From: a virus | Taxonomy: Duplodnaviria > Caudoviricetes | Virus record (IMG/VR): IMGVR_UViG_3300024344_003081 | Reading direction: 5' to 3' (one strand) | Length of the DNA: 64,000 bases | Shown here: in pieces, positions 39,396 to 56,963 of the stretch | Layout of the letters: each line of letters begins with the position of its first letter | Numbering within the stretch: the stretch's first letter is position 1 | Notes under the pieces: model-generated | What the model saw: the letters and a program-made list of their open reading frames with translations, nothing else | Databases searched by the model: none | What the model was told of the DNA's origin: nothing | Translations under genes and position numbers: made by a program

Positions 39396-40060
39396 TATTT
39401 GATAAACCTGTAATAGATCCAAGAGTTAACCAAGGAGATGGACCACCAAAATATATTCCTGGTCAATTATTAGATAAAAAAGATTTAACAGTATATCAAC
39501 ATAAAGATACTACAATGGTTGTTTTAGATTATGATCAAAAAATTAATGTTGATGTGATGAATGAAGTTTTATATAGAACTATAGAGGGTGGAGCAATAAG
39601 AAAAAATGAATATGTAATTATAGTATCTAAAAAACAATTAAATAGAAAAATGTTTAGAAATGTAATAGATAAAATTCTATATTCACAAGATTTGAGATAT
39701 GATTATATGTCAAGTCTTCCAAAGAATTTACATAATAATGTAATAGATTTTAAAGATACTAAAGAATTAACGGGGGACTTAAATAAATCTACATACGAAG
39801 AAGAAGGCACTTTAAGTTGGGAATTACTTAGTCCGGTTGAACAAGGTTGTATAATATTTGAACAATTTTATGGTGATGATCCTGAAATTGTCGCAGGTAA
39901 AAATATAAGTGCTGAAGAATGGATATCTGCAAATAGAAATGTTTGGCATCTTGTAGATAGAGCAACAGATGAACAGAGAAAAGAGTGGTTAGAAAAGTTC
40001 TATAGATATAAAAAAGTGTATGATACATTTCCAACCGCACCACTTATTACGGAGCCATAA
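39392..40060 (+). CDS. Hypothetical protein in the radical SAM operon
   Basis: 222 aa ORF with an ATGA overlap. Confidence 0.65.
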   Translation: MIFDKPVIDPRVNQGDGPPKYIPGQLLDKKDLTVYQHKDTTMVVLDYDQKINVDVMNEVLYRTIEGGAIRKNEYVIIVSKKQLNRKMFRNVIDKILYSQDLRYDYMSSLPKNLHNNVIDFKDTKELTGDLNKSTYEEEGTLSWELLSPVEQGCIIFEQFYGDDPEIVAGKNISAEEWISANRNVWHLVDRATDEQRKEWLEKFYRYKKVYDTFPTAPLITEP

Positions 40061-40323
40061 TGAATAAAGATGAACGAAAAGAAATTTCAGAAAAGGCGGC
40101 CCGTGAAGGTGATATCAATGCAATAATAAAACAATTGCAAGATGAAGAAACTCCTGATAAAGTTCAAGCTAGAGATAAAAATTTACTCAAGAGAAGTTTC
40201 GAATATGAATCCGGAGAAGAGGGAATAGGTCATGAGCCATTATTTAAATATAATTTAGATTTTGCAGGATTAATGAGAAATATGTCCTACATAATTAAAA
40301 AATATAAGGAAAGAAAAAAATGA
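40060..40323 (+). CDS. Hypothetical protein in the radical SAM operon
   Basis: 87 aa ORF with TAATG and ATGA overlaps. Confidence 0.6.
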   Translation: MNKDERKEISEKAAREGDINAIIKQLQDEETPDKVQARDKNLLKRSFEYESGEEGIGHEPLFKYNLDFAGLMRNMSYIIKKYKERKK

Positions 40324-41696: not shown

Positions 41697-41704
41697 GAGA
41701 TATT

Positions 41705-42436
41705 ATGGCTGAAGAACATGAATTGATTAAAAAACACGCTAATGAAGCAATACAAGCATTAGTTCCATTATTAGATAATGAAAAAACACGCCATATAGGT
41801 CATGTATTATTAAAAGCAATTGACTTGGGTTTAGGTATGTTGTCAGCAGATGCTAAAGGAGAGTCTAGTGGAGCGAACAATCAAATAAGAGTAAGTGGGG
41901 CTTCTCCTCCAGGAACCGTTCCTCAAAATTTTCAGAAAGATATAGAGCAAGAAAATAAGGTACAGGGATTAGTAGATGAAACATTAAAGGAATTAGAAAT
42001 GATGGATAATCATGAATCTAATCCTGTAACTACAGACAAAGATGGTAATGAAATAGAATATGTAAAAGGAATGCTTTGTAATTGTCAATTTGCTTCTGAA
42101 TTTCACAAATACTGTGATAATCAATGTAAAGAGACTTTGATTAAAGCAGAAGGAAATCCAAAAGAATATATTAAATTTATTGATAAAGAAAGAAAAGAAC
42201 AAGATACTAAATCTCTTGATGAGGCAATGGATGAGGTTACAGGCTTTATTGATACAGAATTGGGTATTGGAGTTTCTCCTAGACCAAAACCACAACAATC
42301 ACAGCAACAAGCTCCTCAAAATGATGTACAGCAAGAAACTCCTTTAAATGAAGAAAACAAGCAATTTGCGTTAGATCCTAGTCAACCTGTTATTATGCCT
42401 GGTGAACCAACTGGACTTGAAAATGACAGTAGTTAA
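41705..42436 (+). CDS. Hypothetical acidic protein with a Cys motif
   Basis: AGGAGA RBS before the ATG at 41705; contains CNCQF...YCDNQC and a Q/P-rich tail. Confidence 0.6.
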   Translation: MAEEHELIKKHANEAIQALVPLLDNEKTRHIGHVLLKAIDLGLGMLSADAKGESSGANNQIRVSGASPPGTVPQNFQKDIEQENKVQGLVDETLKELEMMDNHESNPVTTDKDGNEIEYVKGMLCNCQFASEFHKYCDNQCKETLIKAEGNPKEYIKFIDKERKEQDTKSLDEAMDEVTGFIDTELGIGVSPRPKPQQSQQQAPQNDVQQETPLNEENKQFALDPSQPVIMPGEPTGLENDSS

Positions 42437-42677
42437 TTTATCCTCTATTAATATTATTGCAGTTCTTACTAAGATAAAAAAATTAGAAGAAAGTAATATT
42501 TCAAATAAATATTCTCGTATAGTTGATTTATTAGATTCTACAAAATCAAGATTTGATGTTTCTCTTGATTCATATAAAAATGTGGAATTATTAGCAGATC
42601 ATATAGAATTTTCAACAACGGGCTTAATTCTTTGGCAAAGAATGAGAGATAAATATAACGACTTAGCGGACAAATGA
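42423..42677 (+). CDS. Hypothetical protein
   Basis: Short ORF; the track start is 42402, and an in-frame ATG at 42423 was chosen. Confidence 0.45.
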   Translation: MTVVNLSSINIIAVLTKIKKLEESNISNKYSRIVDLLDSTKSRFDVSLDSYKNVELLADHIEFSTTGLILWQRMRDKYNDLADK

Positions 42678-43657
42678 TGGCATTCAATGATATACCTGGA
42701 AATTCAACATGGAAAACTGTAAAATGTGATAACGAAATTGTTTCACTTGCTAATGGAAGTGAGCCTGATAAATTTGATCAAATTTTAGATTTATTAAAAT
42801 TAAATAAACAATATTATTTAGAAAATGGAACTACAGAAAACGAATGGCTTGATCGAGTTTCGGGCTTTGCTTGTCAGAGACCATATGTATCAACAACGAA
42901 TGAAGAACGATCTAAAGGAGAAGAATTGGGATTTTATGAAGATTTAGGTAGCCCTGATTGGGAGGCTTCTCAGAATGATTCCAAGATTACTGACCTTGCT
43001 AATGGAAGCGAATCCGATAAATATGATCAAATTTTAAATATATTAAAAACAAATAAAGAATATTATTTAAAAACTGCAGTAACCGAAGATCAATGGACTG
43101 ATAGAGTTTTATATTTTGCATATCAAAGAGGATCTGATGTTAGTGGTGATCCATTTATTGTAGATGATGCACCAGTATTACCTCTTGACTATATGGATTC
43201 TAAAGATATATCATGGTTTAATAGTGATATGAGATGGGAAATCGCAATGAAAATTTTAATTAATGCAATTGATGAAAAAGGAAAAACTTGGTATACAACT
43301 GAAACTGCTCAAACTCCTGATGGTAATATAGCTGGACCAAATGATTCTCAAATTTCTAGTTTAAGTTGGTTGCCATCAAATTGTATATCATTACATAATA
43401 AACTTATAAGTTCTACTTATTCTAAGTTCATATATATTATCAAGTTAAGTAATGTTCATTTGAGATATTCTGAACCATCAAAAATATTTGATGAAATTGA
43501 TACCGAAAACACTACTGCCATTTCAAATCTCAATACATCTCAATTGACAGATTTATTAGCATATGTTAGAGAAGCATATGTAAGTCGTCCAGACGATAAA
43601 ACAAATGAAAATTTTGAAGCCGCATGTGAAATGCTAGAGTTTGATATGGCACAATAA
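42674..43657 (+). CDS. Hypothetical protein with an internal duplication
   Basis: 327 aa; LANGSEPDKFDQIL...WLDRV recurs as LANGSESDKYDQIL...WTDRV. Confidence 0.65.
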   Translation: MMAFNDIPGNSTWKTVKCDNEIVSLANGSEPDKFDQILDLLKLNKQYYLENGTTENEWLDRVSGFACQRPYVSTTNEERSKGEELGFYEDLGSPDWEASQNDSKITDLANGSESDKYDQILNILKTNKEYYLKTAVTEDQWTDRVLYFAYQRGSDVSGDPFIVDDAPVLPLDYMDSKDISWFNSDMRWEIAMKILINAIDEKGKTWYTTETAQTPDGNIAGPNDSQISSLSWLPSNCISLHNKLISSTYSKFIYIIKLSNVHLRYSEPSKIFDEIDTENTTAISNLNTSQLTDLLAYVREAYVSRPDDKTNENFEAACEMLEFDMAQ

Positions 43658-43673
43658 TATATTGAGGAATATA

Positions 43674-44057
43674 ATGGTTACTAGAGAAGAAATTGAACAA
43701 AAGTGTAAAGACGCTTTTGATGAAGCAGGCATGGGCCTTTCCTTCCCAGAAATTACACCAGAAAAAAATATAGCACAGGATCTTGATATTGATTCAATTC
43801 ATATTTTAGAGACTATGATTCTTATTGAAGATGAATTTGATATTATGTTAGATGCTGAAGAATTTCAAAAAGCAACTACTGTAAGGGATCTTTATGATTT
43901 AGTTGAAGTAAAAATAAAACAAGGAGCTAAAATTAAAGAACTTGAAAAAGAAGCAGGCGATGATGAAAAAGCTAGAAACAGATTATTAGAACAACTAAAG
44001 AAAGATAAAGAAGCAGGTACAGGGGTTTATGAAATGAGCCAATATGAGAAAAAGTAA
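43674..44057 (+). CDS. acpP: Acyl carrier protein with a charged C-terminal extension
   Basis: DLDIDSIHILETMILIEDEFDI...TVRDLYDLV, the phosphopantetheine-attachment DSI motif plus helix II pattern; GAGGA RBS before the ATG at 43674. Confidence 0.85.
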   Translation: MVTREEIEQKCKDAFDEAGMGLSFPEITPEKNIAQDLDIDSIHILETMILIEDEFDIMLDAEEFQKATTVRDLYDLVEVKIKQGAKIKELEKEAGDDEKARNRLLEQLKKDKEAGTGVYEMSQYEKK

Positions 44058-45168
44058 AATATCAGGACTTGGTGACTATGGTGTATTTATAGATGATGTA
44101 TCATTAGCAGAAATGTCTGATAATGATTGGATGCAATTAGGAAAAGAACATCTTACAGATTTAGTTACAATTATTAGAAATGTAGATATTCAACCATCTG
44201 AATTTGAACGTAAGATGTATTTATGGGGCGCCCCATATGTTATAGATGGATATCGTATTAAGAAAAAATATGAAAAAAAATTAGGAATATCTAATTTATA
44301 TACATTATTCAAACGTGATCTTTTAGAAGAAGAAGATCGCCGACATGCAGAAAATTTAACGTGGTATATTGCGGCAGGGGATAATTTTACAGAAGAAGAG
44401 GTTCCTGCTGATTCTCATTTAATTCGTATAACTGGTATGAAAGAGAATGGGAGAAGTATGGGAATGTTTGCTGAAGGAGAATTGGGCTGGCATTCTAATG
44501 AAGCGGGTTCGCTTTGCTTTACTCCTGGTGTTGCACTCATGGGCATAAAAGGAATGGTGGGGTCTTCAACAGGATTTGTTTGTTCTGCAACTTGGTACGA
44601 AAAGCAAAGAGATTCTTTTAAAAGAGAATTAGATGATATGACTGTTATTTTTAAATATCAAAATTATGAAACTGCTCCTGAATTAAATAAAGATCAAGAT
44701 GATTCATTTCGTTGGAATCAAACGTTTGAACCGATTGAACTTCCACTGGTTATTACAACCCCTGGAGGAATAAAAGGTCTGCATTATTCTCCTGGTACAG
44801 TAGAGAGAACTAAATTTTTAGATGATTTAGACAAAGAATTATTTGTAGATGAATATACTTATCATCACAAGTATGAAAGAAATAATGATATATTACTTTT
44901 TGATAATTGTATTACTTTGCATAATAGACAAGGATCCCCCATTGAACGAGTGGCTTATCGAGAACCATGTGATTATGCTCAGTTAATTCCTGATGGATAT
45001 AATTATTATTCCCAAGAGCCTTATAAAACACAATTTGAAGAAATGAGAAAAGACATACAGGAAACTCTTGGTGTTAAATCTATAGCTGAACAGAATATGG
45101 TTTTTAAAAAATATATTCAACCAAAATTCCCCAAAAGAGAATGGAAAAACAATGATCTAGTGAGGTAA
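44044..45168 (+). CDS. TauD/TfdA-family Fe(II)/2-oxoglutarate dioxygenase
   Basis: GMFAEGELGWHSN...ALMG...TGF...W...HPLV-like IELPLV, and ILLFDNCITLHNR (distal His, Arg). Confidence 0.75.
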   Translation: MRKSKISGLGDYGVFIDDVSLAEMSDNDWMQLGKEHLTDLVTIIRNVDIQPSEFERKMYLWGAPYVIDGYRIKKKYEKKLGISNLYTLFKRDLLEEEDRRHAENLTWYIAAGDNFTEEEVPADSHLIRITGMKENGRSMGMFAEGELGWHSNEAGSLCFTPGVALMGIKGMVGSSTGFVCSATWYEKQRDSFKRELDDMTVIFKYQNYETAPELNKDQDDSFRWNQTFEPIELPLVITTPGGIKGLHYSPGTVERTKFLDDLDKELFVDEYTYHHKYERNNDILLFDNCITLHNRQGSPIERVAYREPCDYAQLIPDGYNYYSQEPYKTQFEEMRKDIQETLGVKSIAEQNMVFKKYIQPKFPKREWKNNDLVR

Positions 45169-45169
45169 A

Positions 45170-45787
45170 ATGAAAAAAATGATGATAACAGGTGTGAGTT
45201 CTGGTTTAGGAAAAGCACTTTTTGAATATTATGATGGAAAATATATTCAAAAATATAAAGATGTAATAGAAGTTGAAGGTCACAGTAGAAGATATAATCA
45301 ACATGATATTCAAGACATTAAAGATTGGTTTGATCCTGAAGCAGATATTTTTATCAATAATGCATATAGTGATCTGAGATGGTGGACTCAAACGAATGCA
45401 TTATTATATTCTTTTTCAGTTTGGGCAGATAAACCCGATAAACATATTGTGTCTATAAGTTCAATTGCACAGGAAAAAGATACTGATGGATGGCCTATTG
45501 GTCATAGTAGATATTCAGTAGGAAAAATTTCTCTTGATAAAATGAATTTAGACTGTCATGAAAAAGTAGCAAAAAAACATGGATGTAAAGTTTCTAATTT
45601 AAGACTTGGTTGGGTAGAAACACCTAGAACAACAAGAATAAGTACTGTAGTAAGTCGTTTATATGATGTTGATCCTGTTAAGCAAACAACTGGAACAATG
45701 TTGAGTACAGATGAATGTATAGATGCTATAGACTTTATGTTAAATCATAGTGGAAGAGTAAGAGAAATGACATTGGAGGCAAAATGA
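45170..45787 (+). CDS. Short-chain dehydrogenase/reductase
   Basis: ITGVSSGLG (TGxxxGxG), FINNA, SISS and catalytic YSVGK (YxxxK). Confidence 0.85.
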   Translation: MKKMMITGVSSGLGKALFEYYDGKYIQKYKDVIEVEGHSRRYNQHDIQDIKDWFDPEADIFINNAYSDLRWWTQTNALLYSFSVWADKPDKHIVSISSIAQEKDTDGWPIGHSRYSVGKISLDKMNLDCHEKVAKKHGCKVSNLRLGWVETPRTTRISTVVSRLYDVDPVKQTTGTMLSTDECIDAIDFMLNHSGRVREMTLEAK

Positions 45788-46812
45788 GCAAGGTGTTACA
45801 AATAGCAACTAGACATCCTGAAAATGAACATCATAATAAAGATTTTGCCGCAGAATTAAAATTATGGTGGGAAGAAAAAGGATATTCGGGTAGAGTTTTT
45901 GATAGATATCTTCCATTAACGGGTGTTGAAACTCGATATGCTTGTTATAATCGAGAGGAGATGAGAGAAAAATCTCAAACGTTTACTCAAAAAAATAAAA
46001 CATTTAATGAAGTTGCTATAAAATTATCATTAGAATGTGTAAAGGAATTGGAATTTAATCCACAAGATGTTTGTATGTTAACATCAACTACTATGACAGG
46101 TGTTGGTATTCCTACGATTCCCCATACAATATTAAAAGAATTTAATTTTCCAGAATCAATGATTAAAATACCCATGTTTGGTCTAGCATGTAATGGAGGC
46201 ACTCATATTTTAGGAATAGCAAATGAATATTTAAAAGGTAATCCAGACAAGTTAGTTATAGCAATGACTAACGATTTATGTTCAATGAATTTGTGTCCTG
46301 AACATGCTACATTAACAACTGTTTTTGGATCTGTAATATTTGGTGATGGAATTAGTGCTATTTTAATTGCAGGAGATAATTATAATGATGCACCAGGATG
46401 GAAATTACATAAACATGTGTCATATGTTTTACCAGATACAGAAGATTATATTACTCTTCAAGGATTAAGTGAAGGATTATTATATCATGTAGAATCAACT
46501 AAATTGCAAGAAATACCAAAAGCATCTGCGGCATTTAATGATAAAATTAAAGAATTTATTGAAGGTCATACTATTAATAATTGGATATGTCATCCAGGAG
46601 GAAAAATTGTTTTAGAAAATACTGTAAAGGGGCTTAATTTACCTGAAGGTGCTTTGGATTCATCTTTTGAATTATTTCGAAATTTTGGAAATATGTCTGC
46701 AACTTCAGTAATAAAAACTTTACAGCATGATTTTGATAAAGATGGCAAAACAGTTATGATTTCTTATGGGCCAGGTTTTCAGGTTGATGTTATATTATTA
46801 GAAAAAATATGA
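45784..46812 (+). CDS. Type III polyketide synthase (chalcone/stilbene synthase family)
   Basis: Triad motifs GLACNGG (Cys), WICHPGG (His) and FGNMS (Asn); also IFGDG, LTSTTMTG...P and C-terminal SYGPGF; 342 aa. Confidence 0.88.
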   Translation: MSKVLQIATRHPENEHHNKDFAAELKLWWEEKGYSGRVFDRYLPLTGVETRYACYNREEMREKSQTFTQKNKTFNEVAIKLSLECVKELEFNPQDVCMLTSTTMTGVGIPTIPHTILKEFNFPESMIKIPMFGLACNGGTHILGIANEYLKGNPDKLVIAMTNDLCSMNLCPEHATLTTVFGSVIFGDGISAILIAGDNYNDAPGWKLHKHVSYVLPDTEDYITLQGLSEGLLYHVESTKLQEIPKASAAFNDKIKEFIEGHTINNWICHPGGKIVLENTVKGLNLPEGALDSSFELFRNFGNMSATSVIKTLQHDFDKDGKTVMISYGPGFQVDVILLEKI

Positions 46813-47237
46813 TTTGGGGAAAAGATAAACACGATATTCGTAATAGAATTTTGTCGATGACAATAGAAAATGGCTTGGGTATAGATTTACAAACAATAGA
46901 ACCCATTCAAAAAATATATGATAAATGGGGTGATAAATTTGTTAATAAAATATTAACAGATATAGAAAAGAAAAATGCACCAAATCCCATAACTGCAAAA
47001 TATTTAACAAAATGTTGGTGTGTTAAAGAAGCATTTTCAAAAGCAATTGCATCTCCATATTTGAGACTCGATGTTAGTTATACACATTTAAAAGCTAGAG
47101 GAGCAAGATTTCCTGTTGTTCATTGTGTTATGGAACCCAAAGATTGGAATTTGAAACGACAAGATATTAGACTTTCTTTATCTGATACAAAAGATTATGT
47201 GGTCGCAATAGTTATTACAGGAGTTAATCCTTTGTGA
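46809..47237 (+). CDS. acpS: Holo-ACP synthase (AcpS-type 4'-phosphopantetheinyl transferase)
   Basis: GLGIDLQTI, WCVKEAFSKA and RLSLSDTKDYVVAIV correspond to the AcpS motifs GIDI, AKEAxxKA and SISH. Confidence 0.82.
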   Translation: MIWGKDKHDIRNRILSMTIENGLGIDLQTIEPIQKIYDKWGDKFVNKILTDIEKKNAPNPITAKYLTKCWCVKEAFSKAIASPYLRLDVSYTHLKARGARFPVVHCVMEPKDWNLKRQDIRLSLSDTKDYVVAIVITGVNPL

Positions 47238-47959
47238 TAAAAACCTTAGACTATACAATCCCTTCTGAATGGAATAATAAAAATATTATTTCTAGTTTTA
47301 TTGATTCGGGATTTTTAGTAATTAATCATCCCTTCATAGATATGAAAGAAGGTTTACTTTCTTTTAAAGAAAAACTTAAAATACAATTAAACGAATTAGA
47401 AGAAACTGAAGAGGGGTATAGAAAAATTATATTAAAAAATTGTGATAATATTAAACAAAGATTTTTAAAAGTGGGATGTGAAATTTTATATGTTATTGAA
47501 GAATTTTTAAATGTTCCTCCAAATTCTATTGCAATGAAACATGCTGATTCTGATAATGCTTTGAGATTGGTTAAATATTATAAAGATCAGAAAGGATCAA
47601 TAAGAGTAGGAGAACATTGTGATTTTGGTACTTTAACACTTGTTCATGTTTGTGATCCTGTAGAAGAATATGAAATATTTTATGATGATAAATGGAGAAC
47701 AATAAATCATCCTAGTGATGATTTTTTGATTGTGAATATAGGTGATTTTATGCAGATTTGGTCAGATAATAAATTAAAATCTACTCCGCATAGAATAACG
47801 AATAAAACAAAAAAAGAAAGACACAGTATGATTATGTTTATGGATGCTGGTAATCATACTATTAAAGGAATTGATCATGCTACTTGGAATAAAAAAAGAA
47901 TACAAATGGCTCATACAGGAGTAACATATTATCATGACAAAGGTATCGTACAAATATAA
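47234..47959 (+). CDS. IPNS-like Fe(II)/2-oxoglutarate oxygenase
   Basis: LRLVKY, GEHCDFGTLTL (HxD), IVNIGDFMQIWS, STPHRI and RHS (RxS); GTGA overlap with acpS. Confidence 0.85.
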   Translation: MIKTLDYTIPSEWNNKNIISSFIDSGFLVINHPFIDMKEGLLSFKEKLKIQLNELEETEEGYRKIILKNCDNIKQRFLKVGCEILYVIEEFLNVPPNSIAMKHADSDNALRLVKYYKDQKGSIRVGEHCDFGTLTLVHVCDPVEEYEIFYDDKWRTINHPSDDFLIVNIGDFMQIWSDNKLKSTPHRITNKTKKERHSMIMFMDAGNHTIKGIDHATWNKKRIQMAHTGVTYYHDKGIVQI

Positions 47960-48692
47960 AGTATGGTTTTTAATATTAATGAATCATGTTCTAATGATAA
48001 TAGGAATTTATTATGCTATAACAGAATCATCATATTATTTGTTTATTGTACTGTTTATTGGACTTTTATTGAGTAAGTTGGGTGGAGAAATAGGAACTCA
48101 TAGATATCTTTCTCACCGATCTTTTAAAACTGGACCCATAAGAAATTTTATATTGCAAATTATGGGATTAATAAATTGTAATGGTTCACCTATGACTTGG
48201 GCTATATTGCATAGATATCATCATATGAATGCAGATAAGCCAGAAGAACCCCATTCTCCAAATATAATACCATGGTGGAAGTGCTGGTTGACTTTGTGGA
48301 ATCCTATATCTCCTAATCCAAAAGAGTATATGGATTTATTGAAAGATCCATTAGTTAAAAACATACACAAATATTATTTTTATATGATAATATTGATGTT
48401 TGGAATATTATATTTGTTAGACTGGAGATTACTTGTATTTTTAGTTTGTATTCCTTCTGTAATAACCTTTCATGGATCAACTTTATTAATAAATACTATT
48501 TCTCATAAATGGGGATATCGTAATTTTGATACTGATGATAATAGTAGAAATAATACGTGGATTAATTTTTTAATATGGGGAGGGGGCTTACATAATAATC
48601 ATCACGCTTATCCTGAAAGATATAATGAAAAAGTAACAGATAACGAAAGGGATCCTTGTGGCTGGATTATTGAAAAATTTTTTAAAATATAG
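47934..48692 (+). CDS. Membrane fatty-acyl desaturase 1 (Delta9/OLE1-like)
   Basis: His boxes HRYLSH, HRYHH and HNNHH; hydrophobic TM segments; DxPHSP motif region. Confidence 0.9.
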   Translation: MTKVSYKYKVWFLILMNHVLMIIGIYYAITESSYYLFIVLFIGLLLSKLGGEIGTHRYLSHRSFKTGPIRNFILQIMGLINCNGSPMTWAILHRYHHMNADKPEEPHSPNIIPWWKCWLTLWNPISPNPKEYMDLLKDPLVKNIHKYYFYMIILMFGILYLLDWRLLVFLVCIPSVITFHGSTLLINTISHKWGYRNFDTDDNSRNNTWINFLIWGGGLHNNHHAYPERYNEKVTDNERDPCGWIIEKFFKI

Positions 48693-49452
48693 TAGTACTT
48701 GGCATACTCATTTAGGATTTCAAATATTATTTCATATTGTAGCGGCATTAGGAATTGTCTATAGTTCTTGGCATTGGTTATGGTTAAGTCTTATTGGAGT
48801 AATATTATTTCGACATATAGGGGGTGAAATAGGCGCCCATAGATATTATGCTCATAGAAGTTTTGAAGCAAAACCTTGGGCTCAAAAATTAATGATTATA
48901 TGTGGACTTTTTTTATATCAAGGATCGCCATATTCTTTTATTCCAATTCATAGATTACATCATCAAAAATCAGATACAATTGATGATCCTCATTCTCCCC
49001 ATTTTTTAAATTTTGTAAATGTGTATTTTCCTAGTGCGAACCAGTATTATCGTGAACCCGTGGATAAATCATATTTTGCAGATTTAATTAAAGATCCCGT
49101 TTTACAATTTTTACATAGAAATTATTTAATTATAGTAACTATACCATTGATTATAACAGCATTAATAGATTGGAGAATACCTGTTTTTCTATTTGCTATT
49201 CCAGTTGTAATTACATTTCATTCTGCGGGATTGGGAAATACTATAGGTCATTTATATGGATATAGAAATTTTGAAACAACTGATAAAAGTCAAAATTCTA
49301 CATGGGTGAACATATTAACTTTAGGATCAGGATTACATAATAATCATCATGCATATCCTGAAAGATATAATTATAAAATGACAAATAAATGGTATGAAAG
49401 AGATGATTTAAATGTTTTTTTAATCGAAAAATTATTAATGGAGAAAAAATGA
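48658..49452 (+). CDS. Membrane fatty-acyl desaturase 2
   Basis: HRYYAH, HRLHH, HNNHH. Confidence 0.9.
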   Translation: MAGLLKNFLKYSSTWHTHLGFQILFHIVAALGIVYSSWHWLWLSLIGVILFRHIGGEIGAHRYYAHRSFEAKPWAQKLMIICGLFLYQGSPYSFIPIHRLHHQKSDTIDDPHSPHFLNFVNVYFPSANQYYREPVDKSYFADLIKDPVLQFLHRNYLIIVTIPLIITALIDWRIPVFLFAIPVVITFHSAGLGNTIGHLYGYRNFETTDKSQNSTWVNILTLGSGLHNNHHAYPERYNYKMTNKWYERDDLNVFLIEKLLMEKK

Positions 49453-50219
49453 AAATCATTTCAAAATATAATAATACCTGGATGGCATATTTTGGATTTC
49501 AAATTTTATTTCATATATTAACTGTTGTTGGATTGTTATATTCATCATGGCATTGGCTGTGGTTGTCTTTAGTGGGCATTATTTTTTTCAGACATATTGG
49601 TGTAGAAATTGGCGCCCATCGATATTTTGCACATAAAAGTTTTAAAGCAAAACCTTGGGCTAAAAAATTAATGGCCATTTGTGGACTTTTTGCATATGGA
49701 GGAACACACTATGCTTGGATTCCTTTTCATAGACTACATCATCAAAAATCAGACACTAAATTGGATCCCCATTCACCACATCACATGAGTTTCATAGATG
49801 TTTATTTTACTAACTGGCGAGTTGAAGTGTTAGATGTTAAATTGTATCAAGATTTAATAGAAGATAAATTTTTACAATTTTTACATAGAAATTATTTAAT
49901 TATAGTAACTACACCATTAATTTTATTTGCATTGATAGATTGGAGAATATCTGTTTTTCTATTTGCTATTCCAAGTGCATTTGCACTTCATTCTGGGGGG
50001 CTGGTAAATTCTATAGGGCATTTATATGGATATAGAAATTTTGATGATACAAACGATAAAAGTCGAAATTCTACATGGGTGAATATACTAACTTTAGGAG
50101 AAGGTCTGCAGAATAATCATCATGCACATCCTGAAAGATATAATTTTAAAATGTCTAATAGATGGTATGAGACAGATTTTTTGAACGTTTTTCTAATAGA
50201 AAAGTTTTTAAAGGCGTGA
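49449..50219 (+). CDS. Membrane fatty-acyl desaturase 3
   Basis: HRYFAH, HRLHH, QNNHH. Confidence 0.88.
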   Translation: MKIISKYNNTWMAYFGFQILFHILTVVGLLYSSWHWLWLSLVGIIFFRHIGVEIGAHRYFAHKSFKAKPWAKKLMAICGLFAYGGTHYAWIPFHRLHHQKSDTKLDPHSPHHMSFIDVYFTNWRVEVLDVKLYQDLIEDKFLQFLHRNYLIIVTTPLILFALIDWRISVFLFAIPSAFALHSGGLVNSIGHLYGYRNFDDTNDKSRNSTWVNILTLGEGLQNNHHAHPERYNFKMSNRWYETDFLNVFLIEKFLKA

Positions 50220-51082
50220 TAATGTTTAAATATGAGATGACACGAAATGCAATTATTATTGGGATGATGATTCATTTATCTTTTCATGTTTTATTAGTAT
50301 ATGGAATAATAACTTTTTCTTTACATTGGTTGTGGTTAACATTAATAGGAACCATTTTAATTCGACATATAGGAACTGAAATAGGCGCTCACAGGTATTA
50401 TACTCATCAAAGTTTTAAAGCAAATCCGTGGGCACAGTGGCTTATGTCTATTTTATTTGTATGGAATTATGGAGGTAGTATGTTAGCATGGTGTCCTGGA
50501 CACAGTTATCATCATAGATTTTCTGATAGTAAACATGATATACAATCTCCACATTATATAAAAAAATTTAAAGATTTTGTTAGAGTTGTTTTTCCTGCAG
50601 TATTCGCATATGAAAAATTATATAACGATGAAATTGATAAAATGAGAATGAAAAGATACATGGAATGGTTTCATGAAAAGAGGGGTTTTATGGAATTAAT
50701 GAAGAATAAACCAGCGAGATTTACTCATAATTATTATTGGTTGATTGTATCTCTTCCAATTATAATTTTACCAATAATTGATATTCGTTTATTAATCTTT
50801 CTTATAGCAATACCATGTGTAATTAATTTTTGGTCTTTGGCTCTACTAAATTTTTTTGGACATATTTCTACTATTGGAAGTTATAAAAATTTCGAAACTG
50901 ATGAGTGGGGTAACAAGGAACGTTCAGTTAATACTCTATGGTTAAATATATTTACTGGGGGAATGGGACTACAAAATAATCACCATCATAATTCAAGAGC
51001 CTATAATTTTAAAATGAATGATAAATGGCATGAAACAGATTTTTTGAATGTATTTTTAATAGAAAAATTTTTAAAGGTTTAA
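50216..51082 (+). CDS. Membrane fatty-acyl desaturase 4
   Basis: HRYYTH, HSYHH, QNNHHH. Confidence 0.85.
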   Translation: MIMFKYEMTRNAIIIGMMIHLSFHVLLVYGIITFSLHWLWLTLIGTILIRHIGTEIGAHRYYTHQSFKANPWAQWLMSILFVWNYGGSMLAWCPGHSYHHRFSDSKHDIQSPHYIKKFKDFVRVVFPAVFAYEKLYNDEIDKMRMKRYMEWFHEKRGFMELMKNKPARFTHNYYWLIVSLPIIILPIIDIRLLIFLIAIPCVINFWSLALLNFFGHISTIGSYKNFETDEWGNKERSVNTLWLNIFTGGMGLQNNHHHNSRAYNFKMNDKWHETDFLNVFLIEKFLKV

Positions 51083-51083
51083 C

Positions 51084-51923
51084 ATGTTCAAATTTACAGC
51101 AAATAGGTTTGCAGTTATTATGATTTCTATTATTCATACGTTATTTCATATATTAACTGTATATGGATTAATAACTTTTTCTTTACATTGGTTATGGTTA
51201 TCTTTTATTGGTGTTATATTATTACGACATATCGGTACAGAAATAGGAAATCATCGATATTTTTGTCATAGGAGTTTTGAAGCAAAACCTTGGGCAGAAT
51301 GGCTTATGATGATTGGATATGCATTTTCGTATGGAGGAAGTAATATAGCATATGCTATAGGTCATAGATGGCATCATGCTACATCTGATACTGAAAAAGA
51401 TCCAATTTCTCCTCATAACATTAAGAATGTTAAAGATGTTTTTAGAATTATAACTCAAACTTTAGGAGAACTTCAACAGGAAGAACGTAAAGATTGGAAT
51501 ATTTTTAGAAAAAGTGAAAATAAATTTTGTAAAAAATTATTTAAAAATAAAGTAGCAAGATTCAATCATGAATATTATTGGTTAATAGCACTTTCTCCCA
51601 TTGTAATTTTATCAATAATCGATATTCGTTTGTTAATATTTTTTATAGCATTACCTTGTGTTATAACTTTTTGGTCTGGAATGTTAGCACATTTTTTAGG
51701 ACATGTAATGTTATTTGGTTGTTATAGAAATTATGAAACTACAGTTGATGATCTATCGGTAAATAATCCATGGTTAAATATAATAACAGGAGGATTAGGA
51801 ACATTACATAATAATCATCATGCACATCCTGAAAGATATAATTATAAAATGTCTAATAGATGGTATGAGACAGATTTTCCCAATGTGTTTTTAATAGAAA
51901 AGTTTTTAAAACATGATAGATAA
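51084..51923 (+). CDS. Membrane fatty-acyl desaturase 5
   Basis: HRYFCH, HRWHH, HNNHH. Confidence 0.88.
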   Translation: MFKFTANRFAVIMISIIHTLFHILTVYGLITFSLHWLWLSFIGVILLRHIGTEIGNHRYFCHRSFEAKPWAEWLMMIGYAFSYGGSNIAYAIGHRWHHATSDTEKDPISPHNIKNVKDVFRIITQTLGELQQEERKDWNIFRKSENKFCKKLFKNKVARFNHEYYWLIALSPIVILSIIDIRLLIFFIALPCVITFWSGMLAHFLGHVMLFGCYRNYETTVDDLSVNNPWLNIITGGLGTLHNNHHAHPERYNYKMSNRWYETDFPNVFLIEKFLKHDR

Positions 51924-52707
51924 CCTTAATAAATTATTTGTTAAAGATTTTCAAATTAGTATATTACAATATGTGTGGATTTATACCTTTCCTATCATAT
52001 CTGTATTGGGAATAATATATTCGTCATGGCATTGGTTGTTTTTAACATTAGTGGGTATAATTTTGTTTAAAGATATTGGAGGCGAAATAGGAGTCCATAG
52101 ATACTGGACACATAATTCATTTAAAGCGAAACCTTGGGTACCAAAATTATTTTCAATTTGTACAATTTTATGCTATGCTGGTAGTCCTCTTACTTGGTCA
52201 TATGTTCATAGACATCATCATGAGCATTCTGATACTGAAAAGGATGTACACTCTCCCCACCACAGCAAATGGTATCATATCTGGAGAGGATATTGGGATT
52301 TTTCAAAAATAGAAAAGTTTGATCCTAGATTCGTAGCAGATTTGTTGAAAGATGAATCAATAAAATTTGCACATCGATATCATTTATTAATTCAAATATG
52401 CGTAATCATAATAACTGTGTCTATAGATTGGAGAATATTTGTATTTTTATTTGCTCTTCCTAGTGCAATAACATTTTGGTTTGGATCTATAGCTGTTAAT
52501 ATGATGAGTCATTTGTGGGGATATCGTAATTTTGAAACACCTGATAATTCAAAAAATAATATACTTGCTTGTATTCTTGTTTCTTCTGGAGGATTACAAA
52601 ACAATCATCATTATAATCCTTCTTCATATAATTTTAAAATGTCAGATAGATGGTATGAACAAGATATGAAAAATGTGTTTCTTATTGAAAGATTTTTTAA
52701 AGCATGA
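51913..52707 (+). CDS. Membrane fatty-acyl desaturase 6
   Basis: HRYWTH, HRHHH, QNNHH. Confidence 0.88.
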   Translation: MIDNLNKLFVKDFQISILQYVWIYTFPIISVLGIIYSSWHWLFLTLVGIILFKDIGGEIGVHRYWTHNSFKAKPWVPKLFSICTILCYAGSPLTWSYVHRHHHEHSDTEKDVHSPHHSKWYHIWRGYWDFSKIEKFDPRFVADLLKDESIKFAHRYHLLIQICVIIITVSIDWRIFVFLFALPSAITFWFGSIAVNMMSHLWGYRNFETPDNSKNNILACILVSSGGLQNNHHYNPSSYNFKMSDRWYEQDMKNVFLIERFFKA

Positions 52708-53468
52708 TTAATTATTATATTAAATCTAAGCGAACTCCCTATTTTTTCTTAATTAATTTAATTGCTCATTTAGCAATTATACCCGCAATTCTTTATGGCG
52801 AATGGTGGATGTGGATATTAAGTTTGATATGGTGGCAGTGGATAGGATGTACAGCATATACTACTGGGTATCATAGGTATTATACTCATAAAAGTTTTAA
52901 AGCACCGCTTTGGTATGATTATTATTTTAATTTTTTTTCTTTATTTGGTAATCCAGGACCAGTTCTTATATGGAGCGGAACACATAAATTACACCACAAA
53001 TATAGTGATACGGAATTAGATCCACATAGTCCTAAACATAAAGGATTTTGGAATGTGTGGACAAGTTTTTGGGGAATGGGAGTGTTTACAATAGATCCTC
53101 CTACAAGAGAAGATTTAAAAGATTGGTTAGAAGAAACAAAAGATCCTATTGCTAAATGGTTTTATGATAATTATCTTTCTTTAACAGTTATTATTATGAT
53201 TGTATTGTTATTCATGGGTCCTTGGTTTTTTATATTTGGTTTTTGTATTCCTACATGTTTAATACTTCATGGTTCGGGTATTATTAATGCATTTACTCAT
53301 AAGAATGGAAAACCAGAGAATAAAAATTTAGTGGCATTGATAACCGCTGGAGAAGGATGGCATTTGAATCATCATGAAGATCCATCTAATTATACGACAA
53401 GAAAAGAGTCGTATAAATGGTGGCAAGTTGACTTAAATGGTATATGGATCAATTTAATTAAAATATAG
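52704..53468 (+). CDS. Membrane fatty-acyl desaturase 7
   Basis: HRYYTH, HKLHH, GEGWHLNHH. Confidence 0.9.
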   Translation: MINYYIKSKRTPYFFLINLIAHLAIIPAILYGEWWMWILSLIWWQWIGCTAYTTGYHRYYTHKSFKAPLWYDYYFNFFSLFGNPGPVLIWSGTHKLHHKYSDTELDPHSPKHKGFWNVWTSFWGMGVFTIDPPTREDLKDWLEETKDPIAKWFYDNYLSLTVIIMIVLLFMGPWFFIFGFCIPTCLILHGSGIINAFTHKNGKPENKNLVALITAGEGWHLNHHEDPSNYTTRKESYKWWQVDLNGIWINLIKI

Positions 53469-53519
53469 GCTCGATATATATTAACACCAGAGAATGGAAA
53501 CGAAAGTTCCGCTTTGGAC

Positions 53520-53592
53520 AGGGGTGTAGTTTAATTAAAACGGCCAACAGGGTGTTGGGAAGTTGTGAGTGTAAATCTCGCCACCCCGACCA
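53520..53592 (+). tRNA. Non-canonical tRNA-Pro(GGG)-like RNA with encoded CCA
   Basis: Manual cloverleaf: acceptor (A)GGGGTG/CACCCC(G)-A-CCA, D stem GTTT/AAAC with a 5-nt loop, anticodon arm CCAA-CAGGGTG-TTGG, T stem GTGAG/CTCGC with loop TGTAAAT; 73 nt. Confidence 0.6.
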
Positions 53593-53612
53593 AAATTAAA
53601 AAAAAGTATGTT

Positions 53613-54419
53613 ATGATTACAATTAATACATGGAAAAATAATTATATTATTGCACATGATCCTCATTCAAAAATTGAAATAGATTCTTTGAATAAATTAT
53701 TTGTTTCATTAGTAGATAAAATTGGGGGTAGTGATCAAGATTCTATTGAACGAGCAAAGAGAAAAGGTGAATATTTATTAATTGCTGGACATGCAAATAT
53801 AAAATATGAATTGTTAGCAAGAACTTTTCAAGATTTTCTTAAACAATTTGAAATTGGTTATGATTGGAGAGGTGAAAGTTCTGCTGATAATATATCATTA
53901 TTTAATGAATTAAATATTTTACCAACAGAAGATCCTTCTACAGGTGCTATAGGTGGAGGAGTGCCTGATGATAATCAGAATGAAATAGAATTAGGTATTC
54001 TTCCATTGGTTACTATTCTCAATACATTTGATGGAATTAGAACTTTTGGTTCATGTGAAGGACACTATGTTAAGTCTGATTTTCTCAATGCGTATATATC
54101 ATGGACTGCTTGCAATATAAATGGACTAAATTATTCTACATTTCTTTTAAAAAATGCAATTAATGGTGTTTGGGAAAAAAGAAAATTAAATGATGATGAG
54201 AATTTTAATATAAATCAAATAATTAATAGAATTACATTAAGTTTTAATACAGGATATTGGAAGCCTGCACGTTTAAGGACTGCTCCATTACCAGGTGAAA
54301 ATTTTTATCATTTTCGTTTTGATTATGAATTTAAATTTCGATCACTTGTTTTTAATATAATAAATGATATTGCTGAACATATTATAAATGAAAAATATGA
54401 ATTGTCAAAGGAGATATAA
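53613..54419 (+). CDS. Hypothetical protein with a TYW3-like TxxSCxGH motif
   Basis: LNTFDGIRTFGSCEGH. The track's GTG start at 53565 lies inside the tRNA-like element, so the ATG at 53613 is preferred. Confidence 0.55.
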   Translation: MITINTWKNNYIIAHDPHSKIEIDSLNKLFVSLVDKIGGSDQDSIERAKRKGEYLLIAGHANIKYELLARTFQDFLKQFEIGYDWRGESSADNISLFNELNILPTEDPSTGAIGGGVPDDNQNEIELGILPLVTILNTFDGIRTFGSCEGHYVKSDFLNAYISWTACNINGLNYSTFLLKNAINGVWEKRKLNDDENFNINQIINRITLSFNTGYWKPARLRTAPLPGENFYHFRFDYEFKFRSLVFNIINDIAEHIINEKYELSKEI

Positions 54420-54682
54420 TGGCTAAAATTAGTGAAATATCTAATGAGTTGAAGAAAAAACTTGAAGACACAATGCAGGGTGGATATACAGGAGGCTGTC
54501 AAGAGTGGATTAATTTAATTGCAACTGCTGAACCGTCAGAAAATGAAAAAGAAGCAAATATGTTAAAAGCGTTAAATGATTTAACAACACAATTTACAGC
54601 AACGATGTCTGGAAATGCACCAGGTGATCTGACAATTTGGTATCAAGAATTAAACTTTGCTATGAATGAATATTTGACTTAA
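54419..54682 (+). CDS. Hypothetical protein
   Basis: 87 aa; AGGAG RBS and TAATG overlap. Confidence 0.6.
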   Translation: MAKISEISNELKKKLEDTMQGGYTGGCQEWINLIATAEPSENEKEANMLKALNDLTTQFTATMSGNAPGDLTIWYQELNFAMNEYLT

Positions 54683-56256: not shown

Positions 56257-56565
56257 ATGAAGAGAATACATAAAATAAGTCGTGTTCGAACTATTGGTGG
56301 TAGACGAAAAGCATTTAGAAATATTTTTAGAAAAAATAGAGGACTGATTGGTAAGGGATATAGAAAGGTTGCAGGTAAGAAAATTCTTAAAAAAATGACT
56401 GCAAAAGAAAGAAAGAAATTTAATCCTAAAACTAATCTGAAAATAAGACAGTCTTTAAGAAAAAGAAAAATAAAACAGAGATTAATAAACATAAAAAGAA
56501 AAAAAACATTAAGGTCTGGATTATTTAGAGGAATTTCAAAGCTAAATAAAAATATAAAAAGATGA
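56257..56565 (+). CDS. Basic prohead core protein, gp68-like
   Basis: Very K/R-rich 102 aa with KIRQSLRKRK, upstream of gp21. Confidence 0.5.
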   Translation: MKRIHKISRVRTIGGRRKAFRNIFRKNRGLIGKGYRKVAGKKILKKMTAKERKKFNPKTNLKIRQSLRKRKIKQRLINIKRKKTLRSGLFRGISKLNKNIKR

Positions 56566-56963
56566 AAATATTCAGAGAATTTAAAGACGAAGCAGAATAT
56601 CAGCATGTTCCTCTAGAGGAAAGAAAGTTTACTCTTCAACAAAGATTGAAAGCGGGACAACGGGCTAGGAGAAGGTCTAAGTTGTTGAAGAGAGCAAAAC
56701 AAAGAGCATTGAGAAGAATTGCGAGTCCAGAAGTATTACAAAAGCGGGCTAGAAGAACGGCTAGAAATATAATGAAAAGCAGAATTGCTAGAGGACAAAG
56801 CCTTTCACAAATGTCTCCTGCTCAAAAAATAATGCTTGCGACAAGATTAGAGAAATTTTTACCAAGAATTAAAAAAATGGCTAAAAGATTAGTAAAAGTT
56901 AAAAGAAAAGAAGAATTAGCACGTAAAAGAAACAGAACAAAAACACCAGGTCAAAAAGGTTAA
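56562..56963 (+). CDS. Basic prohead core-like protein
   Basis: K/R-rich 133 aa (ARRRSKLLKRAKQRALRR), directly before the protease gene. Confidence 0.5.
   Translation: MKIFREFKDEAEYQHVPLEERKFTLQQRLKAGQRARRRSKLLKRAKQRALRRIASPEVLQKRARRTARNIMKSRIARGQSLSQMSPAQKIMLATRLEKFLPRIKKMAKRLVKVKRKEELARKRNRTKTPGQKG

Follow-up and report, generated by a model that had tools for sequence, protein, structure and literature searches.

Why should an uncultured, marine T4-like phage carry seven desaturase genes in a row? So far, phage desaturases have been regarded as solitary auxiliary genes for adjusting the fluidity of host membranes. In cyanophages, as a preliminary description of this locus correctly stated, a single DesC-like desaturase is typical: the vFAD is one gene among ordinary cyanomyophage AMGs and has been shown to be a Delta9 desaturase acting on C16 membrane lipids (PMC5776448). 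The array considered here lies in a 64,000-nucleotide stretch of viral DNA (the window) whose MCP is closest to those of Pelagibacter and OM43 myophages (62-64% identity), not cyanophages. Its genes are as follows.

47934-48692, + strand: desaturase D1, 252 aa; orthogroup A; Pfam FA_desaturase E 2e-15
48658-49452, + strand: desaturase D2, 264 aa; orthogroup B; Pfam E 2e-16
49449-50219, + strand: desaturase D3, 256 aa; orthogroup B, paralogue of D2; passes Pfam FA_desaturase
50216-51082, + strand: desaturase D4, 288 aa; orthogroup C; Pfam E 6e-15
51084-51923, + strand: desaturase D5, 279 aa; older paralogue of the C group; NCBIfam DesA_fam E 1e-15
51913-52707, + strand: desaturase D6, 264 aa; Pfam E 2e-15
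52704-53468, + strand: desaturase D7, 254 aa; orthogroup G; human SCD1 match E 9e-13

The seven ORFs (252-288 aa) all lie on the + strand, mostly overlap and together span exactly 47934-53468. Intergenic distances from D1 to D7 are -35, -4, -4, +1, -11 and -4 nt, and the overlaps suggest translational coupling. No reading frame contains an internal stop, no ORF of at least 80 aa lies on the opposite strand of the array, and an HMM built from D1-D7 detects no eighth copy among + strand ORFs of at least 100 aa in the whole window. Contigs from four other sequencing runs tile positions 43600-54500 at 95-100% identity without indels and bridge every junction between desaturases. At least 75% of sampled words are found in 20 DNA runs from at least six studies, three of the 20 being possibly source runs. 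The ORF list, the lack of stops and the indel-free contigs confirm the first impression of seven His-box desaturases in a row, none frameshifted.

Each copy retains, in order, the motifs HxxxxH, HxxHH, NxxxH (HxxxH in D5) and (H/Q)xxHH, with a box 1 to box 2 spacing of 37 residues in all seven. Box 3 begins with Q in D3, D4 and D6, as it often does elsewhere in the family (69 of the 270 homologues retrieved). The NxxxH/HxxxH motif aligns to NSAAH of human SCD1, an additional ligand pair in the fourth membrane helix, and every copy has two hydrophobic blocks that could each accommodate a pair of helices. D3, the one copy modelled (AF2, pLDDT 95), is predicted to adopt an SCD1-like fold: Foldseek returns TM 0.75 for SCD1 and 0.82 for DesC, and comparison with 4YMK, 6WF2 and 4ZYO gives TM 0.72-0.75. 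SCD1 is the sole relative in sequence with a solved structure. Pfam FA_desaturase (PF00487) scores D1, D2, D3, D4 and D6 at 56-61 bits, where its gathering threshold is 29.7 bits. It gives no match for D5 or D7, yet their homology is evident from BLASTP (E 1e-38 for D7 against D3), the SCD1 match and NCBIfam. The DesA-family equivalog NF049918 matches all seven copies at 26-104 bits, below its 400-bit cutoff and over only the N-terminal ~230 of its 385 model positions. Judged from these sequence features, D1-D7 very probably belong to the SCD1/DesC ('Delta9-type') branch of integral-membrane diiron desaturases and are intact, their hydrophobic blocks being consistent with four membrane helices.

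A shared C-terminal tail had also been described for most copies. It is exact in D5 and close in D2, D3, D4 and D6, but different in D1 and D7. The first part of the tail aligns, in a profile alignment, with the SCD1 segment following the third His box, so it is probably family sequence rather than an added motif.

Among the reviewed enzymes of this branch are Delta5, Delta7, Delta9, Delta11 and Delta12 desaturases as well as the ACP-dependent acetylenases JamB and TtuB. The branch thus spans several regiospecificities and carriers, and paralogues can therefore evolve new positions and carriers. Insect and plant SCD/ADS expansions are comparable, in that duplication of a Delta9-type enzyme yielded Delta5, Delta7, Delta11 and Delta12 paralogues serving specialised lipids. 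Unlike the phage array, those expansions belong to eukaryotes, their enzymes work on acyl-CoA or lipid substrates together with cytochrome b5, and the genes lie outside any biosynthetic operon.

The simplest use of many copies would be dosage, with all of them performing the same reaction or most being inactive remnants. D6, for example, has no orthologue among the other phage loci examined, its branch mate being only the own-contig copy P0011, and the failure of the Pfam model to recognise D5 and D7 could likewise be taken as decay. Against this, the window shows neither stops nor frameshifts, the four other runs show no indels, the metal ligands are complete in all seven copies, and D1-D7 are only 28-69% identical to one another. 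Moreover, orthogroups A, B, C and G are each common to other phages (support 96/96 to 100/100) and conserve orthogroup-specific motif variants; taken together, the orthogroups extend to no fewer than six further lineages of marine T4-like phages. Divergence combined with retained signatures argues against a dosage array, and we consider redundancy or decay very improbable. The array appears instead to be an old, subfunctionalised gene set and not a recent amplification. The earlier suggestion that the paralogues are functionally differentiated is accordingly backed by orthogroups common to several phages.

Individual copies illustrate this history. Orthogroup A occurs in six of the seven phage lineages examined; D1 groups with L006_9304, L002_7614 and L010_5808 (support 100/99) and is 78% identical to the L019 copy. 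Orthogroup B occurs in all seven lineages (support 96/96 and 99/94), and its two members here, D2 and D3, are 69% identical, while D3 is 67% identical to L010_6511. D4, which groups with L006_10851 and L014_10662, carries, downstream of His box 2 and ahead of the second hydrophobic block, an insert of ~30 aa, giving a box 2 to box 3 spacing of 157 compared with 126-130 in the remaining copies. D5, 56% identical to D4, has a ~20-aa insert and H for N in the NxxxH motif, with all His boxes kept. D7 is set apart from the D1-D6 clade by a long stem (1.3-1.5 changes per column), groups with L002_10825 and L014_9869 (support 100/100), and is 54-67% identical to copies in L022, L024, L002 and L014.

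The desaturases are under purifying selection, as calibrated for one orthogroup only, B. Its dN/dS of 0.15-0.29 resembles that of neighbouring genes in the same phage pairs (type III polyketide synthase 0.13-0.29, 2OG oxygenase 0.17-0.30, phosphopantetheinyl transferase 0.12-0.28). The remaining orthologue pairs range from 0.25 to 0.61, values whose upper end would fit relaxation in some copies; the D7 type is conserved in four lineages at ~0.25, which speaks against decay.

If the copies are differentiated, what chain do they act on? The genes immediately upstream offer a candidate answer.

43674-44057, + strand: acyl carrier protein (ACP) with charged C-terminal extension; Pfam PP-binding E 2e-7
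44044-45168, + strand: TauD/TfdA-type Fe(II)/2-oxoglutarate dioxygenase; Pfam TauD E 8e-11; PHROG 24590 E 2e-63
45170-45787, + strand: short SDR-like (FabG-like) reductase; weak Pfam adh_short match; PHROG FabG-like E 4e-7
45784-46812, + strand: type III polyketide synthase (PKS); Pfam Chal_sti_synt N and C domains, both above cutoff
46809-47237, + strand: AcpS-type 4'-phosphopantetheinyl transferase (PPTase); Pfam ACPS E 4e-11
47234-47959, + strand: 2OG-Fe(II) oxygenase; Pfam 2OG-FeII_Oxy E 6e-17; 26-nt overlap with D1

The likely start of the ACP is the ATG at 43674 (the mechanical ORF start is a TTG at 43641), and the serine of its DSI motif is invariant among six phage orthologues. The SDR-like translation shows a TGxxxGxG-like motif and YxxxK. 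The best solved relatives of the PKS are Mycobacterium tuberculosis Pks11 (E 2e-29), then Pks18 and CylI, and the motifs containing the triad Cys, His and Asn align with those of Pks11, suggesting an enzyme of the same kind as Pks11 and Pks18. Pks11 and Pks18 take long-chain acyl starters. Pks18 has a hydrophobic acyl-binding tunnel that accommodates long-chain acyl-CoAs, and other type III PKSs, namely Gcs and ArsB/C of the Azotobacter ArsABCD system, accept acyl-ACP starters (PMC6274091).

This association recurs. In relatives L002-L019 and L022-L025, a core of ACP, SDR, type III PKS, PPTase and 2OG oxygenase genes accompanies two, three or five desaturases, seven being the maximum among the cassettes examined. 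Desaturase and core genes are also interleaved: in L002, the PKS and a FabA/ApeP-like dehydratase gene flank a D1-type gene, and in L006 a divergent desaturase lies between ACP and SDR. Wherever a locus extends far enough to reveal its surroundings, orthogroups A, B, C and G occur only together with the ACP/PKS core. The proposal that the array is tied to an ACP and a PKS thus finds strong support in synteny and interleaving conserved across seven phage lineages. No earlier description of the cassette was found in the deposited phage genomes or literature searched. The cassette sits in a hypervariable island, where adjacent genes may be unrelated in function.

The recurrent association bears on the most conventional explanation, in which the copies are an expanded vFAD that remodels the host membrane, as acyl-lipid desaturases of differing positional or head-group specificity merely adjoining a PKS cassette. 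A role of this kind is documented for single phage desaturases (PMC5776448), the closest characterised relatives by both structure and tree are DesC-type acyl-lipid Delta9 desaturases, and no dedicated loading or release enzymes were found in the cassette. The array resembles cyanobacterial DesC and vFAD in superfamily branch, length (~250-300 aa) and His-box architecture, and vFAD is also phage-borne. It differs in that the copies are 27-30% identical to DesC in structural alignments and comprise seven diverged genes inside an ACP/PKS cassette of a pelagimyophage-like phage. Seven Delta9-family paralogues for fluidity would be unprecedented (matching deposited phages have one desaturase copy each). 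Also against this explanation, sister phages interleave desaturases with ACP, PKS and dehydratase genes, and A, B, C and G keep to the core in all sufficiently long loci. Membrane remodelling is on balance unlikely.

A second comparison is with bacterial alkyne and polyyne cassettes (jamABC; cay, pgn, ccn), in which, as the preliminary description stated, several desaturases accompany an ACP; the number is three (PMC8406139, PMC9828172), an arrangement observed directly in L026, L027 and L028. As in the phage, several desaturases of the same superfamily adjoin a dedicated ACP, to which the phage adds its own PPTase; some of these cassettes feed a PKS (L026), and their desaturases work as a set on one chain. 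However, alkyne and polyyne cassettes are defined by an acyl-AMP ligase (JamA), a thioesterase and a rubredoxin, have three desaturases rather than seven, and use type I PKS/NRPS or none rather than a type III PKS. No AMP-binding match is present in the window's cassette genes or the relatives' gene tables (three conserved ORFs upstream of the ACP have no assigned function), no thioesterase or rubredoxin Pfam match occurs in the cassette genes, and no rubredoxin-like Cys pattern occurs in the window's small + strand ORFs. Nor is an acyltransferase or ferredoxin recognisable in the cassette or its relatives.

The desaturases themselves also branch apart. In an outgroup-rooted tree of sequences other than cyanophage vFADs, the phage copies form their own clade of short, apparently phage-borne desaturases (support 98/90) beside DesC-like enzymes, their nearest named neighbours. 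The seven reference desaturases of L026-L028 fall outside it, and branches supported at 97/97 and 97/89 separate them from the phage and DesC-like clade. Because the tree places them beside DesC-like enzymes, the copies are not of JamB/CayB type. The earlier interpretation, sequential action on an ACP-bound chain to give a polyene or alkyne starter, therefore survives in part: the ACP/PKS link and differentiation are supported, and kinship with JamB/CayB and the presence of the other partners of an alkyne cassette are not.

Sister proteins of the phage clade occupy radical-SAM and oxygenase islands without ACP or PKS, so the clade is not intrinsically PKS-bound. A homologue in pelagiphage Mosig and close sisters have radical-SAM, TauD, Asp/Arg-hydroxylase and aminotransferase genes as neighbours but no lipid genes, and a Cys-repeat protein and radical-SAM cassette directly precedes the cassette described here. 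Such settings favour another chemistry or substrate, as do the inserts in D4 and D5 and the altered ligand-shell residue of D5: some or all copies might be hydroxylases, epoxidases or conjugases, or act on a non-fatty-acyl hydrophobic substrate, for instance an envelope lipid or one carried by a virion or fibre protein, within oxidative 'decoration' islands. The full desaturase ligand set and SCD1-like fold are nevertheless retained, and close association with ACP, PPTase and PKS favours an acyl or polyketide chain. We regard this explanation as doubtful.

Seven intact, long-diverged desaturases joined to their own ACP and PKS probably point to a heavily unsaturated specialised lipid, beyond the tuning of host membrane fluidity. 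More specifically, the desaturases may be dedicated to a pathway and subfunctionalised, oxidising different alkyl-chain positions of a lipid that the phage ACP and PKS help to make, a reading to which we give an even chance. Here we infer substrate, regiochemistry, timing before or after the PKS, electron donor and what the product does for the phage. The desaturases would insert into the inner membrane of the infected cell, with a host donor supplying the electrons. Each orthogroup would then catalyse O2-dependent dehydrogenation, or a related oxidation, at its own position on the long alkyl chain of the lipid that the ACP and PKS handle. The substrate could be the acyl-ACP starter, before the PKS, or the PKS product, the two being about equally plausible, and the product may be a polyunsaturated, further oxygenated lipid of the alkyl-pyrone or alkyl-resorcinol type. 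Sorgoleone biosynthesis uses desaturases that are FAD2/FAD3-type plant enzymes. In that pathway (DES2/DES3 + ARS + OMT3 + CYP71AM1), fatty acid desaturases are combined with an alkylresorcinol synthase (PMC6274091, PMC8048663). Neither it nor Pks11/Pks18 or ArsABCD has a run of DesC-type desaturases, a private ACP and PPTase, or a viral location.

Several observations count against the pathway reading: the tree position near acyl-lipid DesC-type enzymes and far from ACP-dependent alkyne/polyyne desaturases, the sister proteins in islands without ACP or PKS, and the hypervariable-island location. Nor does any recognisable acyl-AMP ligase, acyltransferase, thioesterase, rubredoxin or ferredoxin of the cassette or its relatives account for loading, release or electron supply.

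A bolder and rather improbable extension is that a lytic phage of the sea produces a natural product of its own. A private ACP and type III PKS line, together with up to seven desaturases, would convert a host-derived acyl chain into an oxidised phenolic or pyrone lipid of high unsaturation (polyene, enyne or polyyne-like). The lipid might be a toxin or deterrent, a membrane-active agent of the infected cell, or a virion-attached lipid, and ACP- or polyketide-directed multi-position chemistry would have arisen from a DesC-like ancestor, independently of the JamB/polyyne lineage. The cassette is compact (~10 kb) and therefore directly testable by heterologous expression.

What is new here is a desaturase family grown to as many as seven conserved types within an ACP/polyketide cassette that many marine T4-like phages share. 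Should the pathway reading be right, the array would offer enzymology a naturally occurring collection of diverged membrane desaturases, short (~250 aa) and presumably differing in regiospecificity. Abundant lytic ocean phages would run their own small specialised-lipid pathway during infection, a new class of virus-encoded chemistry, with possible consequences for infected-cell membranes, grazing and competition.

Exactly seven plus-strand ORFs make up the desaturase array (genes D1-D7, of 252, 264, 256, 288, 279, 264 and 254 aa), bearing out the preliminary description of seven copies of ~250-290 aa in a row, none frameshifted. The ORF listing for 47934-53468 has no internal stops in these genes and no opposite-strand ORFs of at least 80 aa. 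D1 begins 26 nt inside the preceding 2OG oxygenase gene, and the successive junctions within the array (-35, -4, -4, +1, -11 and -4 nt) overlap or abut, suggesting a translationally coupled operon. The array is not an assembly artefact, as evidenced by contigs from four other runs that tile 43600-54500 at 95-100% identity with zero indels, bridging all gene junctions, and by the presence of at least 75% of sampled words of 45784-53468 in 20 DNA runs from at least six studies, 3 of the 20 being possible sources of this DNA. No RNA runs are listed for 45784-53468 or 48658-50219, which says nothing on expression.

The window is from an uncultured marine T4-like myophage, with PHROG matches to baseplate wedge, large terminase, sheath, portal, prohead protease, scaffold and major capsid protein (MCP). 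Its capsid protein is closest to those of Pelagibacter phage HTVC008M (64%), OM43 phage Melnitz (63%) and pelagiphage Mosig (62%), with cyanomyophages at ~60%, and G+C is ~30%. The interval between the end of the portal gene (24413) and the start of the prohead protease gene (56967), ~32 kb (24460-56960), holds a gene run that ends in the array. Two giant ORFs are followed by a radical-SAM cassette and then by the PKS/desaturase cassette.

Features of the portal-to-prohead-protease interval
24460-29499 and 29825-34555, two giant ORFs, G+C 39-45% versus ~30% elsewhere
36075-36668, 197-aa protein with a dozen or so C-terminal CxCNCN/DF repeats
36678-41696, three radical-SAM genes, downstream of the repeat protein
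41690-43657, three conserved ORFs preceding the ACP gene
43674-44057, ACP gene, followed in order by genes for a TauD-type dioxygenase, a short SDR, a type III PKS, an AcpS-type PPTase and a 2OG-Fe(II) oxygenase
47934-53468, plus strand, desaturase genes D1-D7
56257-56963, overlapping 102- and 133-aa ORFs, extremely Lys/Arg-rich, directly 5' of the prohead protease gene; perhaps internal or core head proteins

All orthologues of the ACP keep its serine. Among solved structures, the PKS is closest to Mycobacterium tuberculosis Pks11 (E 2e-29), with Pks18 and CylI next; its motifs bearing the catalytic triad of Cys, His and Asn align with Pks11. Both Pks11 and Pks18 take long-chain acyl starters. 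Pfam and PHROG searches, with a Cys-pattern scan for rubredoxin, recognize no acyl-AMP ligase, acyltransferase, thioesterase or rubredoxin in the cassette.

These radical-SAM genes lie upstream of the ACP/PKS cassette in all related loci, and thus the two cassettes always travel together. Three conserved ORFs of ~230, 85 and 240-330 aa always separate the last radical-SAM gene from the ACP gene (also at 3842-5583 in locus L002 and 3234-4886 in L006). The last of these overlaps the ACP gene, and its C-terminus, EMLEFDMAQ, is invariant; in the copies of the window and L007, the N-terminal ~60 residues are internally duplicated. Neither 41690-42436 nor 42674-43657 has a Pfam or PHROG match or anything usable in Atlas, and the AF2 model of the latter is poor (pLDDT 64) and all-helical. 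T4-type late-promoter-like TATAAATA sites occur on the plus strand at 35535, 55378 and 57618, the last two just 5' of genes at 55418 and 57674, and none falls between 35542 and 55378, a hint that the radical-SAM and PKS/desaturase cassettes might form one long late transcript. Site counts in the promoter and terminator scans are not above chance.

Megablast of the cluster against deposited phages returns no near-identical DNA. Only 3 of 50,697 phage records contain a homologue of D3, each in single copy: pelagiphage Mosig (31%) and two records of one Acinetobacter phage (27%). The only type III PKS in those records is that of Streptomyces phage ZL12, at 22% identity. An alignment-based scan of viral contigs yields one match, a giant-virus MAG desaturase (25% identity), and the phage T3PKS alignment finds no relative in cellular genome contigs, although its very specific patterns make this weak evidence of absence. 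Marine contigs from Tara, JGI, NCBI and IMG/VR, on the other hand, share the order ACP-SDR-T3PKS-(accessory)-PPTase-2OG-desaturases, with gp21, gp22 and gp23 after the desaturases wherever the contig is long enough. The window has the largest desaturase set among the loci examined, as counted with an HMM built from D1-D7.

Desaturase number and accessory genes in related loci
L010-L013: 2 desaturases; Rieske-type oxygenase
L002-L005: 3 desaturases; FabA/ApeP-like dehydratase
L014-L017: 3 desaturases; FabA-like dehydratase, Asp/Arg hydroxylases
L019: 3 desaturases; Asp/Arg hydroxylase
L022-L025: 3 desaturases
L006-L009: 5 desaturases; Asp/Arg hydroxylase
Window: 7 desaturases; TauD-type dioxygenase

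L020 (1185-4317) is a further variant of the tailoring set, in which a desaturase is followed by a 369-aa PTS-HPr-matching protein, a TauD dioxygenase and a Rieske-type oxygenase.

The desaturases form orthogroups across these phages, as resolved by two maximum-likelihood trees and reciprocal BLAST.

Orthogroups of the array members (locus_gene names denote copies in other loci)
A: D1, L006_9304, L002_7614, L010_5808 and copies in L019, L022 and L024; support 100/99
B: D2 and D3, with a single copy per other lineage; support 96/96, 99/94
C: D4, L006_10851, L014_10662, L019_9192
D5: an older paralogue of the C group
D6: no orthologue in the other phage loci examined
G: D7, L002_10825, L014_9869 and copies in L022 and L024; support 100/100

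Orthogroups A, B, C and G are found only with the ACP/PKS core, in every locus long enough to show it, and their copy number covaries with other oxidative tailoring genes. In L002 the PKS and dehydratase genes flank a desaturase gene, and in L006 the ACP and SDR genes flank a divergent one, so that the desaturases are interleaved with carrier and synthase genes, beyond mere adjacency. This co-occurrence with the core, the interleaving and the joint variation with tailoring genes are the strongest evidence for a pathway role. Two sister proteins examined lie in radical-SAM/2OG-oxygenase/Asp/Arg-hydroxylase islands without ACP or PKS. The one desaturase of the cultured pelagiphage Mosig has a similar setting: its island (L018, 5321-11574) contains two Asp/Arg hydroxylases, a TauD dioxygenase, an aminotransferase, an FMN reductase, a peroxiredoxin and a methylase; it adjoins tail-fibre genes and has no lipid genes around it. 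The oxygenase-island setting of the sister proteins is what speaks for another substrate or chemistry, which we judge improbable for copies so consistently linked to the core.

All seven copies retain the hallmarks of the family. D1, D2, D3, D4 and D6 pass the Pfam FA_desaturase cutoff (56-61 bits versus 29.7), and D5 and D7 have no match to that model even at E 1. The latter two are nevertheless clear homologues: NCBIfam NF049918 is matched by all seven copies, far under its equivalog cutoff, D7 aligns with D3 (BLASTP E 1e-38), and D7 alone as query finds human SCD1 (E 9e-13). HxxxxH followed at exactly 37 residues by HxxHH, an NxxxH pair (H replacing N in D5) and (H/Q)xxHH are present in each copy, as are two hydrophobic blocks, each spanning the width for two helices, and the His-box and NxxxH motifs align with the metal-ligand motifs of SCD1. 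The third His box begins with Q in D3, D4 and D6; Q is found in 69 of 270 fetched family homologues and was rejected as a mark of special chemistry. The C-terminal tail earlier described as shared by most copies is exact in D5 and close in D2, D3, D4 and D6, but differs in D1 and D7; it looks like family sequence rather than an added motif, since its first part aligns after the third His box of SCD1. In D4 and D5 (50216-51923), an extra 20-30 aa are inserted after His box 2 and before the second hydrophobic block. The matching region of SCD1 gives the substrate head-group entrance its shape, and the insert might alter carrier recognition.

Pairwise identity among D1-D7 is 28-69%, and recent tandem duplication is rejected on both trees. 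Orthogroups shared between phages instead indicate that the multigene set is old and arose by duplication and differential loss. Orthogroup G has a long stem outside the D1-D6 clade. Motif variants stay orthogroup-specific across phages: NV(V/I)CH in three of four tabulated A copies (NTISH in D1), NFFGH with H(S/C)xHH as box 2 in all C copies, and HLNHH with PSNYTT in G. D2/D3 is the sole candidate for a lineage-specific duplication, which the trees do not settle. The 3' tails of D3 and D5 (50100-50219, 51800-51923) are alike at 32 of 37 residues versus 51% amino acid identity overall, with identical codons at 26 of 30 identical residues versus 0.69 gene-wide, which hints weakly at local gene conversion within the array.

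NG86 dN/dS values are rough, since dS is in part saturated and A+T-rich codon usage compresses it; they are 0.15-0.29 between phages for orthogroup B, and for the same phage pairs 0.13-0.29 (T3PKS), 0.17-0.30 (2OG oxygenase), 0.12-0.28 (PPTase), 0.24-0.44 (ACP) and 0.115 (MCP); other desaturase orthologue and paralogue pairs give 0.25-0.61. These figures show that the orthogroup B desaturases, the calibrated group, are constrained like the remaining cassette genes. Multiple copies could simply reflect dosage or decay, which is unlikely since every copy retains all ligands, the orthogroups are conserved and selection is purifying.

Phylogeny places the copies, and structure places D3, near DesC. 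The D3 model (pLDDT 95, pTM 0.91) superimposes on SCD1 structures with TM 0.72-0.75; among reviewed proteins its best match is cyanobacterial DesC (TM 0.82), with plant ADS enzymes next and Delta5, Delta7, Delta11 and Delta12 enzymes lower in the list. The ACP-dependent acetylenases TtuB and JamB reach TM 0.74-0.80 at 26-27% identity. A complex prediction for D3 and phage ACP residues 1-85 scores 0.04, which counts neither way. An exhaustive profile search returns 821 cluster representatives at E < 1e-30, the top ones mostly ~250-aa metagenomic proteins. Longer proteins (528-812 aa) also occur among the metagenomic representatives, with two or three desaturase-like stretches in P0131, P0137, P0251 and P0252 and one in P0193; tandem desaturases may sometimes be fused, or the gene calls may read through. 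Tree references comprised alkyne/polyyne-type desaturases from B. gladioli and Streptomyces plasmids and DesC-type genes from cyanobacterial plasmids. The phage cassette copies group with the ~250-aa metagenomic proteins and the Mosig protein in a single clade (98/90), whose nearest named neighbours are DesC-like proteins. The alkyne/polyyne desaturases fall outside it (separating branches 97/97, 97/89), contrary to a JamB/CayB-type kinship, which the preliminary description had proposed to check by phylogeny. DesC-like ancestry would fit a role in the host membrane, which seems doubtful for genes interleaved with a carrier and synthase.

Oxidation at specific positions along the alkyl chain of an ACP/PKS-linked lipid, to which we give about an even chance, is favoured by the genomic linkage together with precedents from the Pks11 and Pks18 starters and from other systems. 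Pks18 accommodates long-chain acyl-CoAs in a hydrophobic acyl-binding tunnel, and ArsB/C and Gcs are type III PKSs that accept acyl-ACP (PMC6274091). It is established for polyynes that sets of desaturases act on a chain bound to an ACP (PMC9828172, PMC8406139); as the preliminary description noted, bacterial polyyne clusters combine several desaturases with an ACP, an arrangement also seen in the reference neighbourhoods, FAAL-desaturase-desaturase-ACP(-desaturase-hydrolase-rubredoxin). In sorgoleone biosynthesis, fatty acid desaturases work together with an alkylresorcinol synthase (PMC8048663). The chain would be carried as acyl-ACP, or be part of a PKS product in the membrane, and the chemistry would be ene or yne formation; an electron donor and loading and release steps are further parts of the pathway that we infer.

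Biosynthetic gene clusters are reported to be rare in phages and mostly to encode bacteriocins, with a single type III PKS, that of ZL12, among them (preprint 10.1101/2020.10.01.322628). No description of this desaturase/ACP/T3PKS configuration was found in deposited phage genomes or the literature searched. The enzyme families themselves are known, unlike their configuration, which couples up to seven DesC-derived desaturases to a private ACP, PPTase and type III PKS and is carried by lytic T4-like marine phages.
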